Program-made: the position numbers and the translations under genes
Shown here: in pieces, positions 14,077 through 54,590 of the stretch
How positions within the stretch are numbered: position 1 is the stretch's first letter
Layout of the letters: the number at the start of each line of letters is the position of its first letter
From: a virus
Lineage: Duplodnaviria > Caudoviricetes
Virus record (IMG/VR): IMGVR_UViG_3300025890_003136
Location: 1-55,082 of that record
Direction: 5' to 3' (one strand)
Length of the DNA stretch: 55,082 nucleotides
Notes under the pieces: generated by a model
Told to the model about the DNA's origin: nothing
The model's database searches: none
The model's input: the letters and a program-made list of their open reading frames with translations, nothing else

Positions 14077-14664
14077 TTAACCCACAAAAGCATTAAAACT
14101 AATGCTGATCCTTTCATTGTCTGTCAATTGCTGTTCAACACTATGTTCAATATAACTAGGAAAAAGCAACAGTCTGCCAGTTTTAGGTTTGAAACTGTGG
14201 ACTCTTCTCGTCATGTCATTAATAACAGATGGTGCTTTCCAGGGCCAATTGCTAATTTTATTCTGATCATGAAAAGAAATTCTAGCATCATTCTCTTCTG
14301 CTTGTACATAATAGATTCCGCTTATTGTGTCTGGAACATGATTGTGTGGTCCATGACTGCTGTATTTTCTATTGTTGTTAAACCAACTGCCGGTCATATT
14401 ACAATATCCTTCTAGTCCTAGATCTTTCACTGCTTCTACAACATTGCCCATGATAAAATTTTTCATTTCTTTGCATTCATCATAATCCAGTATGTTAGTG
14501 ATTGGACCATAACTGGTGTAACCTTCTTTGGTGTAGGTCATTTCCTTATTGGGATTTTTATTTTCAATATCTTTGAACATAGGCACAATTTTTTCTCTAA
14601 ATGCTTCTGCTTCACTGTATGTGAATTCCCATATAGGAACAGGAAATATTTCATGTCGTTTCAT
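14077..14664 (-). CDS. 2OG-Fe(II) oxygenase (TIGR02466-like)
   Basis: SWFN, HNH, SGIYY, LFPSYIEH, RISISFN. Confidence 0.85.
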   Translation of the reverse strand: MKRHEIFPVPIWEFTYSEAEAFREKIVPMFKDIENKNPNKEMTYTKEGYTSYGPITNILDYDECKEMKNFIMGNVVEAVKDLGLEGYCNMTGSWFNNNRKYSSHGPHNHVPDTISGIYYVQAEENDARISFHDQNKISNWPWKAPSVINDMTRRVHSFKPKTGRLLLFPSYIEHSVEQQLTDNERISISFNAFVG

Positions 14665-15446
14665 TATACGTCATCACCTTCCATTACATAGAAACTAGAA
14701 CTCTTGCCGACAGAATCTTCCTGTAGATAATATTCTTGACCGTCATATTCGACTTCGCTGAATACTTTAAAACCATCACAATCTTCATAGTTTATTTTGA
14801 TCTTTTTAAGATTGATACCTTCCGGACCTGTTTTAATCAAATCCTCTGTGTACCAACCACCTTTGTTGAAATACTGTCCAAACATATAATGAGTATCCTT
14901 GCAGGTTTTAGATCCTTCATTGTGTACTGCTACACATTTTGTTTTGACACCTTTCTTTTTAAACAGATCAAAATCTATCTTGATGTCTTCCACTGTGCCA
15001 TTTCCTTCTTGATTCCGTTTTGGGTTGCCTTTATCGTCTAACTCTGTGATGTACAATGTGTTGCCGTTTGCCAATTCAGGACCGCATAGGTGAGCGATGT
15101 CATCCTGTTCATGAAATGGTCTGTCAAACTGTGCATCTTTAGGCACGTCTTTGTTGGCATTGTCTGGGTCATAATCCACATCCACCATGTACTGCTCAAA
15201 ATTTTCATTGTTGTACCAATATTCAAATTGTGCAGATGTTATTGTGCCCATGCACACTTCACCGCCATACCTAGTGAATTCAAATTTAAAATACCTTGCT
15301 TCATTTTTTATGGCCTTGATTAATTTTTTTTTCTTTTTACTGCTGACTTTTTTTGTTTTGCTAGACTTCTTTTTGTTCGGAAATGCTTCGGACCATTTGG
15401 CATCAAAACTGTCAAACTGATTGTATTGTTCTTCTGATTTATTCAT
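14664..15446 (-). CDS. Hypothetical protein, paralogue of 27114-27830
   Basis: GGEVCMG.IT..QFEYW..DDIAH..G shared with paralogue; GGAGGAG SD before ATG 15446. Confidence 0.65.
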   Translation of the reverse strand: MNKSEEQYNQFDSFDAKWSEAFPNKKKSSKTKKVSSKKKKKLIKAIKNEARYFKFEFTRYGGEVCMGTITSAQFEYWYNNENFEQYMVDVDYDPDNANKDVPKDAQFDRPFHEQDDIAHLCGPELANGNTLYITELDDKGNPKRNQEGNGTVEDIKIDFDLFKKKGVKTKCVAVHNEGSKTCKDTHYMFGQYFNKGGWYTEDLIKTGPEGINLKKIKINYEDCDGFKVFSEVEYDGQEYYLQEDSVGKSSSFYVMEGDDV

Positions 15447-15804
15447 GTTCTCCTCCTGGGTCGTTTTTGTCATAATATACTTTGTAAGGTTTTCCGTGCT
15501 TGTCATATCCTAGTGTGTATCCTCTGGCTCTTCCCACAGAGTGATATGAATCAAATTTCCATTTTGCGGATAAACTTTTTTTAGTGAATATTATACCATA
15601 GATCACCAATGCATGTGCTATCACACTGGTTGTCACATTTATTCCTATGCTGATGAACCCTTGTGTGATTAATGCAAAGATAAATGCCCACATGGTTGCC
15701 AGCACCATCAGTATCTGAAATCTAGTCACCTTGGGTAATCCACCTTTGAATGCCTTGTCCTCATCAAACAGTTCAGGCAACATATATTTCACAACCTTGT
15801 ACAT
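15439..15804 (-). CDS. Membrane protein
   Basis: Two TM segments; C-terminal DPGGEHE; start at ATG 15804. Confidence 0.6.
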   Translation of the reverse strand: MYKVVKYMLPELFDEDKAFKGGLPKVTRFQILMVLATMWAFIFALITQGFISIGINVTTSVIAHALVIYGIIFTKKSLSAKWKFDSYHSVGRARGYTLGYDKHGKPYKVYYDKNDPGGEHE

Positions 15805-28912: not shown

Positions 28913-29074
28913 TTATTCGTACAGTTTCTTCCAATGTGATTGTGGCGATTGTTCTTCGTTTTGGCTGTATGATTCTGGATATACAACTTCAGTAAGATTT
29001 GGTTTTAGTCTTCCTGATGTTCTTTCTTGACTTGCTGATTGCGTTCTCTCATTATGTACGATAAAGTCTTTTTT
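28913..29074 (-). other. Candidate -1 frameshift site and alternative C-terminus of the 521-aa protein
   Basis: TCA AAA AAA AAG; -1 frame open to TAA at 28913, ending YSQNEEQSPQSHWKKLYE. Confidence 0.5.
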
Positions 29075-30570
29075 TTTGAATCAGTGTCTTTGTTTTCCAA
29101 TTCATACTTGATTTCATCTTCGTCGAATCCGTCTGATTCTGGTTTCTTAACTTCTTTTGATACTTCTTTTTCTGCTTCTTCGATCATTTGGTTCCATTGT
29201 TCTAATGGCATTGGTGGTTCAACTGGCTCTGGTTTCCTGCCACCCAATGTTAAGCCTGCTCCAGTTAATCCAGGATGTACAACTTTTCCAGATTCAACTG
29301 GTTTTACTTCTACTTCTGTTTTGGATTCTTCTGCAATTATTTCTTTTTTGTATTCTTCTGCAATCTTTTCTAAATTCTCTTTTTCTTCTTGTTCACGTTT
29401 TTTAAATTCTTCAAGTTTTTCAGCACTAGGCATTGTAGATACTGGCTTCTTCTCAGCAATACTACTCAACTTGATTGGATTGCTTTTCACTGCTTTTTGT
29501 TTTTCAACAATCTCAGTTAAACTGTGTCCGCCCGATGGTGCAGGTGGAGTTGTTAGTGGAGTTGTAGGTGCAGGTGGAGTTGTAGGTGCAGGTGGTAATT
29601 CACCGTGCTTGTCTATGTATCTCCATCTAAAAGTGTATTGTGAAGCAATCAACAATAGCACTGCTAAAGGATCAAACACAAAAATAATTGTTATGATCAC
29701 CCATCTCACTGCTTCTTCTAATAAATTTCTATCTGCTTGTTCTCCATACACAAATTCAGCAATATATCTGATAGGTCCTACTTCAGATTCCAATTTCATT
29801 AACTGACCTTTTAACGGTTCTTGTTCTATGATTAGCACTTCTATTCTGCCTTGTGCATCAAAAATATTCTTTTCTGTTGTCTGTATAGTAATAGAATTCT
29901 TGTCCAATGTGTTGTTGATTTGAGCTCTTAATTTATTGATGTTTTCCTGAGCATCTGTAACTTGTTTATTGATTCTATCTCTTTCTGCTTGTTGACTTTT
30001 ACGCACTTCCAAGCCACGTTTGATATTGTCACCTTTAAACAAACCTTTACCTTGGTCTGTGTAGGCTTTAACATCTGCATCTAATACTTCTAATCGTTTG
30101 TATGCATCATCTATCTTCTTTTGTTCTATCTGGATGTCTTGATTAAACCTGTCATTACTGCCCGTGCTTTGCCCTGTTAGACGCTCTAAAACGTCCTTTT
30201 GTCGCTCTATGTAACTGTTTTCAGCTCTTACTTTATTGTCTATGATTTCGATTCTTTGAGTAACTGTGTCTGAAGATAAATTTTGATCCACGTGTGCTTT
30301 GGATAGGAATCCAAATATACCCATGGAGGTGATCAACATTAGAACTAATACTGCTATTGATAGATAGGTTCTAAGCCACCAAGCCGCTTTGCTCCAGTAT
30401 CTGTGTAACCATACTGCTGTTACCAGTTTGCCTACTTCTAAGGCAGTACCCATAATGATAATTGGCACAGCCGCCGCGGCGAATATTGCCACTAATCCAG
30501 CCACTGAATAATAGATTGCTACACCTGATATGGTGAGAGCCGTAAGAAATGTAATAAGTCCAAATAGCAT
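29005..30570 (-). CDS. Membrane-anchored coiled-coil protein
   Basis: Three N-terminal TMs (LEVGKLV, TSMGIFGFLSKAH), long coiled coil, EVGPIRY..FVFDPLAV TM, Pro-rich linker. Confidence 0.8.
   Translation of the reverse strand: MLFGLITFLTALTISGVAIYYSVAGLVAIFAAAAVPIIIMGTALEVGKLVTAVWLHRYWSKAAWWLRTYLSIAVLVLMLITSMGIFGFLSKAHVDQNLSSDTVTQRIEIIDNKVRAENSYIERQKDVLERLTGQSTGSNDRFNQDIQIEQKKIDDAYKRLEVLDADVKAYTDQGKGLFKGDNIKRGLEVRKSQQAERDRINKQVTDAQENINKLRAQINNTLDKNSITIQTTEKNIFDAQGRIEVLIIEQEPLKGQLMKLESEVGPIRYIAEFVYGEQADRNLLEEAVRWVIITIIFVFDPLAVLLLIASQYTFRWRYIDKHGELPPAPTTPPAPTTPLTTPPAPSGGHSLTEIVEKQKAVKSNPIKLSSIAEKKPVSTMPSAEKLEEFKKREQEEKENLEKIAEEYKKEIIAEESKTEVEVKPVESGKVVHPGLTGAGLTLGGRKPEPVEPPMPLEQWNQMIEEAEKEVSKEVKKPESDGFDEDEIKYELENKDTDSKKKTLSYIMRERNQQVKKEHQED
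29537..29596. repeat. Coding tandem repeat (PPAPTT units)
   Basis: Repeated ggtgcaggtggagttgta 18-mers. Confidence 0.75.
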
Positions 30571-34684: not shown

Positions 34685-34980
34685 CCTGATCTATTCTGTT
34701 GCCCGGCAGATCAACCGCCAAGTGGCCGGTATTAAGCGGCAACCAATTCCTGATCAGCGAATACGCTCATCGGAACCGTCACTTCTGGTTTAAATGCGTT
34801 TGCATTTGTAAATGATCCTTTACAGAGATCGGACTGATAAACTCCATGTGCTTTTCAACTCCGGTCGAAACCAAGTACACCCCCTCATAATAAACCAGAT
34901 TATTATAAATGAGTGTTGGTGGAGGTGGAGGGAGTCGAACCCTCGTCCCAAAAGTGTATTACACACACTTCAACGTCTAC
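34663..34980 (-). ncRNA. ssrA: Circularly permuted two-piece tmRNA
   Basis: Acceptor piece ...GACGAGGGTTCGACTCCCTCCACCTCCACCA ends at 34917; 32-nt spacer; coding piece starts GGGGGTG at 34884 (G3.U70 Ala pair); tag 34803-34732 ANAFKPEVTVPMSVFADQELVAA*; outer ends approximate. Confidence 0.93.
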
Positions 34981-35010
34981 AGTGTATTTAAACAGATTTT
35001 TTTGTAAATG

Positions 35011-35208
35011 TCAAGACTTGATTGGTGACCATCTACCATCTTTGCTTCTAACTTTGTCAGAATGCTCTACTTCAATAGTGAATGGTTTGGTGCTGTCAAA
35101 GTCTTTACCGTGTGCAAACACGAACTTATGACCTTTTGACGTTTCAGTCTTCCAGTAATTGATAAAGTCTTTAATCACAATCTTATTCTTTTGTATTTTA
35201 ACTGTCAT
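35011..35208 (-). CDS. Hypothetical protein
   Basis: 65 aa; TTGACA-17-TACATT 6 nt before ATG. Confidence 0.6.
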   Translation of the reverse strand: MTVKIQKNKIVIKDFINYWKTETSKGHKFVFAHGKDFDSTKPFTIEVEHSDKVRSKDGRWSPIKS

Positions 35209-44392: not shown

Positions 44393-44430
44393 TAACTGAT
44401 AATAAACTATATTTTAAAAAATGTCAAGTA

Positions 44431-44760
44431 TTATGTGCGTTTTTTGGTTGCTCTCTTTGCCATGGTGTTTAAACTGGCAGAGCGGTCACCTTTTTTTGTA
44501 GGAATGTTTGGTTCTTCAGCGTCAGTGTCAAGTGTGATACCTGACTTGTCAAATGTTTTGATCATTTTTTTGATTGAAGAATTCTTGTTGTAGAGATTTT
44601 TAAAACTGTCGTGATTGATTGAGAAGCCTCCGACGTTGGTCATTATCTTGTTCAACGCATCAAAAGACAAGTATGCTTTTTGATTGCGTGAATCAGCACT
44701 GCTGATTAAATTTCTAAGAACTTGAATTAACTCTGCGCCTGAGGCTTCAGAAATTAAGCC
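44431..44760 (-). CDS. Head-cluster reading frame without a good start; probable -1 frameshift extension of the upstream gene
   Basis: Frame open from GGC at 44760 (GLISEASGAELIQVLRNL...) to TAA at 44431; first canonical start is a TTG 30 codons in. Confidence 0.6.
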   Translation of the reverse strand, partial: GLISEASGAELIQVLRNLISSADSRNQKAYLSFDALNKIMTNVGGFSINHDSFKNLYNKNSSIKKMIKTFDKSGITLDTDAEEPNIPTKKGDRSASLNTMAKRATKKRT

Positions 44761-45947
44761 TTTTTTTTTGAACTTGTTGAAAGTGTTTCTGCTAGTCTTC
44801 TAGACAAATGAATCATTGATTCTCTTTTGCTTCTGTCTGCTGGTTCTTCACCGCCTGTTGCTGGTTCGCTTGCCGAAAAATCGTCTGCTTGATCTGGCAT
44901 GTCTGCATCAGCATCTGTTGTAGGTTCCATCTCTGGTTCCATAGTATCGCTGTCCGCTCCAATTGTATCTGGTGCTTGTTCGCCTGTCAGTACGGCTACG
45001 CCGCCTGTTAGTGATTCTCTTGTTGCTTCTAATGAAGTGTATAAAGATTCTAAACTTGGCTTCACTGCATTAGTAAATTGTTCAGATTGTTCTACTCCCA
45101 TTTCGTCTCTAATAGCATCTGCTAACTCTAGCATTGTTTCAGTTTGCATAGATGCTGTGTCTTCCATCCAACCAGTAATTTTATCAACCATGTCTTTAGC
45201 CGCCATTACCAATTGAGCTGATTCTTCTGCGCCTTCTTTAACTGCTTTTTTCTTTTTGTCTTGCACTGCTTTTTTCATAGGTTCTTTTTTATCCCCATCT
45301 TTGTCCATGTCTAAAAAATCTGGTTTTGCTTTTTCATTCATTGCTGTGGCTAATAAATCTTCTGCATCTTGAAGTGTAAATTCTTTATCGCCTACTTTAA
45401 ACTTGTCGCCTTTTTTCATGCCTGCCGCTTTGGCTTTTTGAACTGCGTCTGCGAAAGCATTGCCTTCCATTGGCTCATCTTTTTGTGATCCATCGTCTTC
45501 AAATTCGTTTTCAACTTTTTGTTTTGCATAGTGTAAAGCAGATGCTTCGTCACCTTGTGCTGTTGCCTGTCTTTTCTCTATGTCAGCGATCACAGCCTGC
45601 TTGTTCATTTTTAATGCTTCTTTGTCCATGTCAAAGTAGTCACCTACTATTTCATCTGCTTGGATTAAAATATCGTTTTGTAATTTTGCTTCTACTGTTC
45701 TGTCATTGATTGCAGAATCTAGTACGTCTAAAAACATTTTTTGCTTGTGGTAGTCTTCGTTGTGACTTAACCCATCAAAGGATTCATTTTGCTCTATGTT
45801 GACAATCTTGTCCAACACACTTGAACGAGCAGTTTCTAACTGTGCGTCTGTGAATTGATCTAATTGGATTGCTGAGCCAAACACTTTTGACAGTCTATCA
45901 TTCAACTGTTCTGTTGTTGCTTGGTGTCTAAATTGCTCTATTTTCAT
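44754..45947 (-). CDS. Putative prohead core/scaffold protein
   Basis: Acidic and helical; KPDFLDMDKDGDKKEPMKKA motif; ends SKKKA; TAAATA and SD upstream. Confidence 0.65.
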   Translation of the reverse strand: MKIEQFRHQATTEQLNDRLSKVFGSAIQLDQFTDAQLETARSSVLDKIVNIEQNESFDGLSHNEDYHKQKMFLDVLDSAINDRTVEAKLQNDILIQADEIVGDYFDMDKEALKMNKQAVIADIEKRQATAQGDEASALHYAKQKVENEFEDDGSQKDEPMEGNAFADAVQKAKAAGMKKGDKFKVGDKEFTLQDAEDLLATAMNEKAKPDFLDMDKDGDKKEPMKKAVQDKKKKAVKEGAEESAQLVMAAKDMVDKITGWMEDTASMQTETMLELADAIRDEMGVEQSEQFTNAVKPSLESLYTSLEATRESLTGGVAVLTGEQAPDTIGADSDTMEPEMEPTTDADADMPDQADDFSASEPATGGEEPADRSKRESMIHLSRRLAETLSTSSKKKA

Positions 45948-52451: not shown

Positions 52452-52672
52452 TGGATATTGTTGCTCTGATAAATGATTATGGATTTCCTACTGTTGCTGT
52501 GTTCTTTCTAGCATACTTCATCTACTTCCTTTGGAAATTTATTACAACGCAAATCACTCCTAAATTGAATTCAACATCAGCCACATTGATCAAACTGATA
52601 GACAGAGTGCGTATGTTGGATAATGATCTTATAAGATTGAGAACCAAAGTAAAAACTTTTAAGAAGAAGTAA
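52451..52672 (+). CDS. Small membrane protein, paralogue of the upstream gene
   Basis: YGFP..A..YFIYF.W; LIDRVRMLDND; TAATG coupling. Confidence 0.7.
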   Translation: MDIVALINDYGFPTVAVFFLAYFIYFLWKFITTQITPKLNSTSATLIKLIDRVRMLDNDLIRLRTKVKTFKKK

Positions 52673-54590
52673 TAGTATAAACTTTAATAGATTCTGTTTT
52701 ACCTTTTACAGTGATGCTGTCTATGTATTCAAAACGATACATGGTTTCAATTGTGTGTCTTGTGTCTTCACCAATCACAATAGTTTTTTTCAATGTTTTA
52801 CTAGAACTTTCTAATCTTGATGCTAGGTTCACTGCATCACCAATCACAGAATAATCAAACCTTTGTTCTGATCCCATGTTGCCTACCAATGCATCACCAG
52901 TGTTAATTCCAATTCCTATATTGATTTGAGGCAGTCCTTCTGCTTGTAGTTGTACATTTAATTCTGCCAGTGCTATTGTCATTTGTATTGCACTCTTGAC
53001 TGCCAACTCTCTGTGCTTTTTGTTTTCAATAGGTGCGTTCCAGAATGCCATGATGCAGTCGCCCATAAACTTGTCTATGGTTCCACCATTTGAGATTATA
53101 ACATCTGTCATGCGTGTTAAGAATCTGTTGATCAGTTTGGTCAGTCCTTCAGGATTGCCTTTGTACTGTTCGCTGATAGGAGTGAAGCCTCTGATGTCAC
53201 AGAATAGGAATGTCATGTTTCTTGTTTCACCACCCAGTTTCAACAATGAAGGATCCTTCTGTAGTTTCTTCACCATGCCAGGATCCAAGTAGTGTTCAAA
53301 CTGTTTCTTGATCTGTTGTCTTAATCTGCTCTGTGTGGCAAAGTTGTTGTACACAGAATGAGACCAAATCAAAAACACAGACAACATGATCCATGATGGG
53401 TCTATCAAAAATCCTTTGTTTGCATATGCCATGAATGCTCCGTAAGCCACTCCAGTCTCAACAAACAACAACAATGGCACAGCCAACAACACACTGGTTC
53501 TTGGTATCACGATGATCAACAGCAACAACAGAAATGCCATGAACATGATCTCATGTGTGTCTGCTTGTGGTGTACGCAACAAAAATTTTGCTGTCAACAG
53601 TGTGTCCAATGCCTGAGCACTTATGTTTTGATCTGTTGTCAATCCGTGTGGTGTGTATTTCAACACACTCAATCCTGCGGCATCTAAACCAACAATGATC
53701 ACTCTGCCTTTAATTTTGTTTTCGTTGAACTTGCCTGATAGTATGTCTGTGGCTGACATCTGTATGTAATTGTTTGGGTCAGCATAGTTGATGTACATCT
53801 CAGCATTGTGATTCACAGGCACGCCTGCCTTCTTGCTGACTAGCACTTCGTCTATGCCATGAGGTTTTGCAATCACTTTAATTCTTTTTGATCCATTCAA
53901 CAATCTAACATTTTCTAATATCATACTGGGATATATCTTTCCGCCGATTCTTATCAGCATAGGTATCTTTCTGACCACAGCATCAGGTTCAGGTGACGTC
54001 ACATTGACTCCCATGCCTGTTGCTCCTGCTGACACTTTTGGATATGGAGACACTATGCCTTCAAACTCATACAACCAAGGTTTCACATTGCCTTTTTCAA
54101 TTACTGGTGTTGCACTGGGTAGATTTGTGTCCGCAGTGTTCTTCACACTCATCATCAGTATTGCTCTCTTGGACTGTTTCAACACCGATGAGAACACCTG
54201 ATCAGTGTCCAACAATATCTGTTCCAATTGCTTTCGTGTTTCTTCATCCATTGGCATGGAGTTCAAATATTGTTTGCTACCCATTCTGTCTGGCTCTGCG
54301 AACAGTATGTTGTAGTTGACCAATATTGCTCCTGCGTCTGATAGCCTAGCATGTAACATTGCCATCACGTGTCTGGGCCATGGCCATTGTCCGTATTTTT
54401 CCAGATCCTGTTCCGTGATGTTGACCACGGTGACGGCGTTGCTCACAGTCTTCCTGGGTTGGATCTTTTGAAAATGATCCCATGTCTTGTATCTTAAAAT
54501 TTTTACTGTGTCGCTGTTGTCGATCCTTATGCCTGTCAGCACCAAGGCAAACACCACAACCATCCAAATGCTAGTGAATATCCTCATCAC
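52659..54590 (-). CDS. CHASE2-domain class III adenylate cyclase
   Basis: YGQWPWPR CHASE2 motif; TMs; FCDIRGFT, DKFMGDCIMA, FDYSVIGDAVNLASRLE, VKGK. Confidence 0.92.
   Translation of the reverse strand: MMRIFTSIWMVVVFALVLTGIRIDNSDTVKILRYKTWDHFQKIQPRKTVSNAVTVVNITEQDLEKYGQWPWPRHVMAMLHARLSDAGAILVNYNILFAEPDRMGSKQYLNSMPMDEETRKQLEQILLDTDQVFSSVLKQSKRAILMMSVKNTADTNLPSATPVIEKGNVKPWLYEFEGIVSPYPKVSAGATGMGVNVTSPEPDAVVRKIPMLIRIGGKIYPSMILENVRLLNGSKRIKVIAKPHGIDEVLVSKKAGVPVNHNAEMYINYADPNNYIQMSATDILSGKFNENKIKGRVIIVGLDAAGLSVLKYTPHGLTTDQNISAQALDTLLTAKFLLRTPQADTHEIMFMAFLLLLLIIVIPRTSVLLAVPLLLFVETGVAYGAFMAYANKGFLIDPSWIMLSVFLIWSHSVYNNFATQSRLRQQIKKQFEHYLDPGMVKKLQKDPSLLKLGGETRNMTFLFCDIRGFTPISEQYKGNPEGLTKLINRFLTRMTDVIISNGGTIDKFMGDCIMAFWNAPIENKKHRELAVKSAIQMTIALAELNVQLQAEGLPQINIGIGINTGDALVGNMGSEQRFDYSVIGDAVNLASRLESSSKTLKKTIVIGEDTRHTIETMYRFEYIDSITVKGKTESIKVYTITSS

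Follow-up and report, generated by a model that had tools for sequence, protein, structure and literature searches.

The question raised by this locus is how a protein domain comes to be expressed from an open reading frame (ORF) that has no start codon. The locus lies in IMG/VR record IMGVR_UViG_3300025890_003136, a fragment of a tailed-phage (Caudoviricetes) genome, whose full 55,082 nucleotides were analyzed and are referred to here as the window. On the minus strand, a gene for a 397-aa protein ends in a run of nine adenines followed by G (A9G), and the -1 frame stays open for more than a hundred codons past the stop codon of this gene. A preliminary description of the sequence had proposed that a programmed -1 shift on the run extends the 397-aa protein. 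Our comparison of related loci bears this proposal out: the run, its codon phase, and the start-less ORF are conserved, the extension evolves under purifying selection, and a natural in-frame fusion of the two proteins exists. Programmed -1 recoding that yields a fusion of ~505 aa is therefore the highly probable reading of the site.

Reading Frames at the Junction

The 397-aa ORF ends in ...TCA ACA AGT TCA AAA AAA AAG GCT TAA, in which the heptamer A AAA AAG is in phase with the zero frame (Table 1). The -1 frame is shut by a TAG at 44802..44800, 13 codons ahead of the GGC codon that follows the run, and is open from there to the TAA at 44433..44431, a distance of 122 codons from stop to stop. 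After the run, it starts with this GGC and reads GLISEASGAELIQVLRNL...MAKRATKKRT over 109 codons. The earliest ATG, GTG, or TTG in this frame is a TTG at 44670, which is codon 31; in the ORF list of the window, the extension is visible solely as a 79-aa ORF with a TTG start. The start-less first 30 residues of the extension contain the tryptic peptide GLISEASGAELIQVLR. Re-reading the sequence and its frames confirmed every element of the site as it had been described.

The length of the run was examined in Logan contigs from two DNA runs and two RNA-library runs, which cover the site with 0 gaps. Because these contigs are gap-free and A9G recurs in 68 of 70 run-bearing relatives, the nine A's are not an assembly slip. 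The RNA-library data are assembled contigs, which show A9 and cannot reveal minor A10 transcripts, slippage, or even transcription. A minor-strain contig of RNA-library run X15 that ends at 44768, inside the run, was considered too weak and was not used.

Conservation of the Run and of the Start-less Frame

IMG/VR was scanned with both proteins, affording 36 loci with relatives of the extension and 80 with relatives of the 397-aa protein, many of them on common contigs. Three of the 80 run off their contig, leaving 77 readable loci, and 70 of these carry a run of at least nine A's in the matching codon phase (NNA AAA AAA AAG). The run is A9 followed by G in 68 of the 70 and A10 followed by T in two (L101 and L102); L036 has A11 followed by TAA, with the same arrangement of the -1 ORF. 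The zero-frame stop is found 0-3 codons past the run in the run-bearing relatives, and the -1 ORF after it spans 98-128 codons at every run-bearing locus except L038 (65 codons). L038, also recorded as L030 (IMG/VR contig 3300017725_001692), is the sole run-bearing relative with a shortened extension, and the length of its tblastn match is not a multiple of 3, indicating an indel or an assembly error within the extension. At 67 of the 70 loci, the first ATG, GTG, or TTG lies 9-42 codons inside the -1 ORF, at a variable position. The -1 codon following the run is GGC, GGT, GAG, GTA, GTG, or ATA, depending on the lineage; because it differs in this way, no hidden start is present.

The 67 complete loci, the window included, comprise 54 unique sequences, which fall by single linkage into 17 clusters at 80% and 26 at 90% DNA identity. 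The 10-nt block formed by A9 and the following G is invariant across the 17 clusters at 80% identity. As a control for synonymous change, 20 representative run-bearing genes were aligned. Among 48 invariant columns of degenerate amino acids, only three (all GAA) keep a single codon, and synonymous sites in these genes are therefore well mixed. The wobble A of the codon before the run is also invariant, in a codon that is TCA in most lineages and GGA in one; the background use in these genes is 62% TCA among TCN codons, 13% GGA among GGN codons, and, for lysine, 81% AAA and 19% AAG. Judged by these alignments, the conservation of the run is far beyond chance. The extension itself shows dN/dS ratios of 0.086-0.299 (12 pairs with dS <1), which clearly mark it as coding and under purifying selection.

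These data bear on whether the arrangement is an artefact, either a homopolymer assembly error or a decaying remnant of a downstream gene. Homopolymers are error-prone, and the 65-codon extension of L038/L030 would suit a remnant. The identical A9G in dozens of independent assemblies, however, together with the maintained length of the extension and the purifying selection on it, makes an artefact exceedingly improbable.

A second explanation is that two ordinary genes are present, such that translation of the downstream protein begins independently, either at a non-canonical codon such as the stop-overlapping ATT or by termination-reinitiation. In the window, an AAAGG that could act as a ribosome-binding site is placed 5 nt ahead of the in-frame ATT, L100 has a GTG exactly at the junction, and the downstream protein was ancestrally made on its own. 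The preliminary description had named initiation at the ATT as an outcome that would speak against a shift. The ATT is absent from many relatives (GGC TTA ACT/AAA GAG, GTA ACA GAG..., for instance), which excludes it as a general start, and no common start or near-start takes its place at the junction (GGC TTA ACT, GGC TTA AAA, GTA ACA, GAG TTA, ATA AGT). Homologues with their own ATG, another such outcome, are confined to lineages lacking the run, barring the GTG of L100 and a TTG in L074/L075. An independent start would also leave the invariant synonymous A's and the fixed phase unexplained, and the natural in-frame fusion described below means that the joined protein is viable. Two separately initiated genes thus seem quite unlikely. 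The predicted structure of the extension provides a further constraint. Its AlphaFold (AF2) model (pLDDT 74) is a compact domain with the order H-E-H-H-E-E, in which residues 3-24 form the first helix. A start at codon 31 would lose part of this fold, and since the first helix belongs to it, translation must begin at or before the junction if the model is correct.

Separate, Coupled, and Fused Forms

Seven readable loci lack the run. Six of them (L104 and L112-L116) have an own-ATG homologue of the extension, and one (L084) has an unrelated gene in that place. In these six loci and in L033-L035 from the other scan, the homologue is a separate gene of 113-131 aa with its own ATG (MRLFE..., MKIFE...), which either sits behind a Shine-Dalgarno (SD) sequence or overlaps the upstream stop as ATGA or TAATG. 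A tree of the upstream protein places the run-bearing rows together in a single large clade, with L104 at the unresolved base of this clade and the remaining own-ATG forms on the opposite side of the tree; the well-supported branches are compatible with a single origin of the run.

A profile of the extension family, searched against 1.84 billion representatives, matched 746 clusters (50% identity) at E values up to 0.001. The matches are mostly stand-alone proteins of ~110-135 aa or N-terminally shortened calls, with many rows starting at profile positions 13-42. Seven sequences were fetched from the matches listed, which cover 150 of the 746 clusters, and one of the seven, P0230 (517 aa), is a natural in-frame fusion of both proteins. 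P0230 aligns to the 397-aa protein from residue 1 to its KKK (E 3e-46) and, past this KKK, continues ISEDINS... and aligns to the extension (E 2e-13). Its 90% cluster has seven members (five of 517 aa, one of 529, and one of 309) from 14 contigs with small sequence differences, and all seven share the junction SKKK-ISED, which may be compared with L101, where SKKK is followed by ISENID. At the sequence level, this junction is of the type predicted for a -1 slip. DNA encoding P0230 was not found in IMG/VR or in JGI metagenome contigs, and a word search for longer homologues of the extension returned none. Two other proteins, P0125 (463 aa) and P0131 (261 aa), carry a homologue of the extension domain at the N-terminus with unrelated C-terminal parts, and are thus fused in the other direction. 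The relatives, as compared here, appear to hold three evolutionary states, namely separate genes, genes coupled by slippage, and an in-frame fusion.

The in-frame lineage and the mutability of homopolymers could also be taken to suggest phase variation at the DNA level, in which a population would mix A9 genomes that encode the short protein with A10 genomes that encode the fusion. The evidence speaks strongly against this explanation, which we regard as very improbable. An in-frame run length is found in 0 of the 70 run-bearing loci, and A10, which had been flagged beforehand as a result contrary to a shift, is found neither in the contigs nor in 68 of the 70 run-bearing relatives. The fused length (~505 aa) is also absent from the best 120 of >4318 homologues of the upstream protein, which have lengths of 396-406 aa apart from one of 326. 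The DNA contigs from two runs contain no indel, though contigs drop rare variants.

Programmed recoding would proceed by the following mechanism. During expression of the 397-aa gene, some events would slip back one base on A AAA AAA AAG, and reading in the -1 frame would go on past the TAA that lies one codon later. The products would be the 397-aa protein and a ~505-aa fusion composed of residues 1-396 and then 109 residues beginning GLISEAS. Ancestrally, the downstream protein was encoded by a separate gene with its own ATG, an arrangement that distant marine relatives and the cultured Rak2-like jumbo phages retain. Loss of the start in this clade would have left C-terminal extension of the upstream neighbour as the only way of making it. 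Both partners would be virion proteins. Through the fusion, the small domain, weakly winged-helix-like with a basic tail, would enter the particle as a fixed minority, as Pol does with Gag, and a prohead protease may subsequently free the domain after a conserved [LIV]xE motif. By analogy, Gag-Pol-like packaging and release of the small domain fits the features of the locus.

Identity of the Upstream Protein and Its Counterparts in Cultured Phages

The family of the 397-aa protein is large, with >4318 metagenomic homologues, and neither this protein nor the extension has a match in Pfam. In PHROGs, residues 223-383 match phrog_14154, annotated 'virion structural protein', and an unnamed family is matched as well. 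For the extension, PHROGs searches with the protein alone or with 27 aligned members gave no shared family, as five families were each matched by one of the 27 (best E 0.00085), and a profile search of PDB sequences gave nothing below E 0.13. Blastn and tblastn searches of INPHARED with the region, the 397-aa protein, and the extension returned no match at E limits of 1e-5, 1e-3, and 1e-2. Only when tblastn was relaxed to E values up to 1, with the C-terminal 191 aa of the upstream protein as the query, were 13 jumbo-phage records matched, weakly, at E values of 0.008-0.2; these include CBB, GAP32, Munch, 7t3, SE_PL, PHA46, fENko-Kae01, XaC1, XbC2, and Atu_ph07. Comparison of the 397-aa family profile (A2) with gp298 of Pectobacterium phage CBB by hhalign gave a probability of 96% and an E value of 3.6e-9 over 152 columns, and matches of the upstream protein in BFVD are proteins of RaK2 and Atu_ph07.

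Gene order was compared next to these matches. CBB, XaC1, Munch, and XbC2 encode a protein of ~195-215 aa, next to it one of ~110 aa, and then an exonuclease; in CBB and XaC1, where the flank is long enough, a ribonucleotide reductase (RNR) lies a few genes past the exonuclease. Atu_ph07 has a 771-aa protein followed by one of 128 aa. The order in the window is the 397-aa gene, the extension, a 2OG-Fe(II) oxygenase, an exonuclease, a fibre-like gene, and RNR. On the basis of profile comparison, the 397-aa protein is a homologue of gp298, a virion protein of the Rak2-like jumbo phage CBB, and the extension, by the alignment of gene order, occupies the position of the CBB virion protein gp299. 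Mass spectrometry of the CBB virion is reported to have detected CBB_298 with 10 peptides and CBB_299 with 2 (PMC5259590). CBB thus resembles the window in its homologous upstream protein and its gene order, and both of its proteins are found in the virion. It differs, as do XaC1, Munch, XbC2, and Atu_ph07, in having two separate own-ATG genes without an A run.

The preliminary description had called the 397-aa protein a prohead core/scaffold protein. This label is unsupported because the protein has no homology to such a family (the PHROG and Pfam searches matched no core or scaffold family) and is located outside the head module, with nucleotide-metabolism, exonuclease, and fibre-like genes as its neighbours; in CBB, gp298 is encoded ~35 kb from the gene for the gp21-type (S77) protease. 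The core and internal proteins of T4 (gp22, gp67, gp68, and the IPs) likewise show no sequence homology to the window proteins. The AF2 model of the 397-aa protein has long helices, with a confident helical hairpin at residues 239-321 followed by an acidic disordered stretch. In this model, the protein looks scaffold-like in style, yet it shares homology with no core or scaffold family, and 'virion protein of Rak2-like jumbo phages' is the label that is supported.

Two features of the upstream protein family were observed in passing. A near-invariant motif, AKPDFLDMDKDGDKKEPMKKA, spans residues 207-237 of the 397-aa protein (window positions 45237-45329) and is present in two copies in some distant relatives; it matches virion or hypothetical proteins of the cyanophages S-SCSM1, P-TIM68, and S-CREM2 with 83-94% identity over 16-18 residues. 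The variable middle of the protein contains Cys-rich inserts in L101, L107, L114, and L116 (for example, CCGADV...CTCPASCKECDC and CCCSTKG..CPVHG), which, from their composition, may bind metal.

Fold and Possible Processing of the Extension

The AF2 model of the extension was compared with known structures. A Foldseek search against the PDB gave a best E value of 0.23. VIA gave a top Z score of 6.2 for an LRRK1 chain, with an rmsd of 8.9, and its winged-helix-type matches (JetB, Z 6.1; the winged-helix domain of MCM8, Z 6.0) are below the trust level of the tool. The modelled fold can accordingly be called winged-helix-like only weakly.

All 27 of the 27 representatives, which are extension or stand-alone proteins, contain an [LIVMF]xE whose E is at residue 3-6, as compared to a background of 13 in 2644 positions elsewhere in these proteins. 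Its variants are ISE, LKE, LTE, IAE, VTE, VNE, and LFE (in MRLFE); in the alignment used, the first residue of L100 is printed as M for its GTG codon. At residues 6-8 of CBB gp299 and its cultured relatives, the motif takes the form ITE, LTE, or LLE. In the upstream protein, 25 of 26 rows show a VKE at residues 236-238, where the gp298-homologous part begins. In T4, according to PMC9026906, gp21 cleaves after L/I-X-E and trims short N-terminal targeting peptides off internal proteins. A homologue of gp21 is present in Rak2-like phages; a PF03420 search recovers the CBB gene, and the capsid of the Rak2-like phage phAPEC6 is described as containing an inner body (PMC7247149). The small protein with an N-proximal [LIV]xE resembles the T4 internal proteins, and the cultured relatives own a gp21-type protease. 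It differs from them in that the stand-alone forms would lose just 5-8 residues. The conserved [LIV]xE sequence past the junction is compatible with release of the extension by a prohead protease and fits this proposal.

Points Against Recoding and the Nature of the Slip

Several observations weigh against programmed recoding or against parts of the mechanism set out above. Support for the fusion protein and for a shifted mRNA comes from sequence comparison, none of it direct. A possible start lies at or near the junction in 3 of the 70 loci, as GTG in L100 and as TTG seven codons upstream in L074/L075. The link between the extension and gp299 consists of position, size, and a common C-terminal V..MA.KA motif; the hhalign alignments of the extension to gp299 and its relatives are collinear and not significant (P 0.0065 and 0.013). 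Searches for a prohead protease (PF03420), for Gp23 (PF07068), and with the CBB protease as the query found nothing in the window record and nine marine records, which are 13-41% complete, and these negatives speak for those fragments only. When the 70 nt past the run were folded in 25 sequences, z scores ranged from -2.8 to +0.44 with no common structure, and Rfam found no element at the junction. With no conserved 3' structure at the canonical spacing and no Rfam element, the efficiency of the shift could be low.

The stimulatory stem-loop suggested in the preliminary description did not hold up. It is part of the minimum-energy fold of the window sequence, but it scores z = -0.89 against shuffled sequences, lacks conservation in relatives, and has no spacer between itself and the run. 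Recurrence of a hairpin was limited to one that directly adjoins the run in a single subclade; other sequence replaces it in most lineages. No upstream SD sequence at the run was seen by eye in the aligned relatives.

These features leave two agents of the slip to be weighed, and ribosomal -1 frameshifting on A AAA AAG is slightly ahead of RNA-polymerase slippage on A9. In the latter, the polymerase would slip on the run (T's in the template) and add one A to some transcripts, affording the same fusion; if the site is recoded, this route has a substantial chance of being the true one, though one that stops somewhat short of even. It is supported by the length of the run, as none of the 70 run-bearing loci has fewer than nine A's and those with a base other than G after the run have 10-11 (L101/L102 and L036). 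The heptamer requires only the last six A's and the G, yet invariance also reaches the first Lys codon and, ahead of it, the wobble A of the Ser or Gly codon. No conserved ribosomal stimulator was found, and a second site in the window, described below, likewise keeps A9-A10. According to PMC5009743, bacterial RNA polymerase slips efficiently in vivo on nine A's or T's, and dnaX of Thermus thermophilus exploits this property. The same source describes A AAA AAG as the most shift-prone heptamer in Escherichia coli and as shifty in bacteria with a single Lys tRNA. In line with a ribosomal shift on this heptamer, 68 of 70 loci retain the G that follows the run, even as the -1 codon starting with it changes (GGC, GGT, GAG, GTA, or GTG). 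Nine A's also make two overlapping heptamers, so that the length of the run is compatible with a ribosomal mechanism. The RNA-library contigs, which show only A9, are uninformative on minor species.

A Second A9G Site in the Window

Three A9 runs are found on the coding strand in the window, and runs of at least nine A's or T's number four overall versus 6.4 expected from a first-order Markov simulation. A second TCA AAA AAA AAG, with its A9 at 29077..29069 (-), occurs 20 codons before the stop of the gene for a 521-aa membrane protein (30570..29005). All 8 of the 8 relatives with readable ends retain the run, either as CCA A9G or as CAA A10G. The -1 ORF that follows is always 51 codons long, ends in SHWKKLYE, and fills the ~115-nt gap ahead of the next gene; among the relatives, its -1 frame shows changes that are synonymous. 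From the comparison of these sequences, 29077..29069 is likely to be another programmed -1 site that uses this signal. The third A9 run, at 15332..15324 (-), is followed by T and is part of a Lys-rich stretch of a 280-aa gene (15506..14664); its -1 frame stops after 7 codons, and a slip there would merely shorten the protein.

A broader proposal would combine these sites. A run of at least nine A's with a G behind it would be a recoding signal throughout this clade of abundant, uncultured marine jumbo phages, with at least two unrelated genes using it, and at the junction studied here it would serve a Gag-Pol-like device, in which a small virion protein, possibly DNA-binding and winged-helix-like, has had its start replaced, is made as a minority fusion, enters the capsid, and is released by the protease. 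Taken as a whole, this proposal is speculative and somewhat unlikely.

Relation to Known Recoding Systems

The site resembles E. coli dnaX (gamma/tau) and insertion sequences of the IS911/IS150 type in having the identical zero-frame heptamer and two products with a common N-terminus. The dnaX and IS sites have an upstream SD-like element and a stem-loop ~6 nt downstream, whereas none is conserved here, and the run here always contains at least nine A's. Moreover, the shifted product is the shorter one in dnaX and the longer one here. With T. thermophilus dnaX, the site shares a conserved homopolymer of nine and nearby stops in the other frames, as that gene is described in PMC5009743. It differs in that the long product of T. 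thermophilus dnaX is the unshifted one and that, in the same account, heterogeneous mRNA was shown for that gene, whereas the shift here is read from sequence alone.

Further parallels are the tail chaperone G/GT of lambda and the capsid proteins 10A/10B of T7/T3, where -1 shifting at a low level, toward the end of a structural or morphogenetic phage gene, adds a C-terminal domain at a set ratio. The genes and the slippery sequences are different from those here, and, unlike in lambda, T7, and T3, the extension is a free-standing gene in relatives and an in-frame fusion in one lineage. Programmed -1 shifts that extend phage structural proteins are already known, and this site adds a new example. 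The likeness to retroviral Gag-Pol, in which frameshifting attaches a minor cargo to a protein abundant in the particle and a protease of the particle later frees the cargo, is inferred and is drawn as an analogy only; if packaging and release take place as proposed, the locus would be a phage parallel to Gag-Pol. A literature search, restricted to one library of papers, returned nothing on this site, nor on recoding in Rak2-like or marine jumbo phages.

Recoding sites are seldom so well backed by comparison, here 70 loci in 17 divergent clusters together with separate-gene and fused relatives. The phage group is very abundant in ocean metagenomes, and gene callers miss the extension or shorten it to an internal start. 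The locus provides a natural series for the replacement of a start codon by a slippage site, as well as a simple test case for telling ribosomal from polymerase slippage on A9G.

Other Features of the Window

The coordinates of the elements discussed above, and of a promoter-like sequence, are collected in Table 1. This near-consensus, sigma-70-like promoter is situated right after the stop of the extension and before the 2OG-Fe(II) oxygenase gene.

Table 1. Positions of the zero-frame gene, the slippery site, the extension, and associated elements in the window
Feature	Position	Strand	Remarks
Zero-frame gene, 397 aa + TAA	44754..45947	-	ORF; mostly helical, with acidic stretches; homologue of CBB gp298
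A9 run	44761..44769	-	Gives NNA AAA AAA AAG with G 44760
Slippery heptamer A AAA AAG	44766..44760	-	In phase with the zero frame
Zero-frame stop TAA	44754..44756	-	One codon past the slippery AAG
-1 frame extension, 109 codons + TAA	44431..44760	-	No start of its own for 30 codons
I-S-E codons ATT TCT GAA (extension residues 3-5)	44746..44754	-	Candidate prohead-protease site [LIV]-x-E
Small hairpin AGGCUU-loop-AAGCCU abutting the run	44741..44762	-	GGC subclade only
Promoter-like TTGACA-17-TATTAT	44399..44427	-	11/12 matches; consensus match only
Second A9G site + 51-codon -1 ORF	28913..29077	-	Kept in 8/8 relatives with readable ends

CheckV estimates the 55-kb record to be 15% complete and related 148-kb contigs to be 41% complete, which implies a jumbo phage of ~360 kb; the longest contigs of this clade reach 311 kb. 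A permuted tmRNA of the alphaproteobacterial type is encoded at 34685-35018 (-) (Rfam tmRNA_permuted, 87 bits; alpha_tmRNA, 58 bits), with the tag peptide ANAFKPEVTVPMSVFADQELVAA according to ARAGORN; the type of this phage tmRNA hints at an alphaproteobacterial host. A 643-aa protein encoded at 52659-54590 (-) has 36% identity to the 'adenylate/guanylyl cyclase' of Pelagibacter phage HTVC008M and 31% identity to that of the Methylophilales phages Melnitz.

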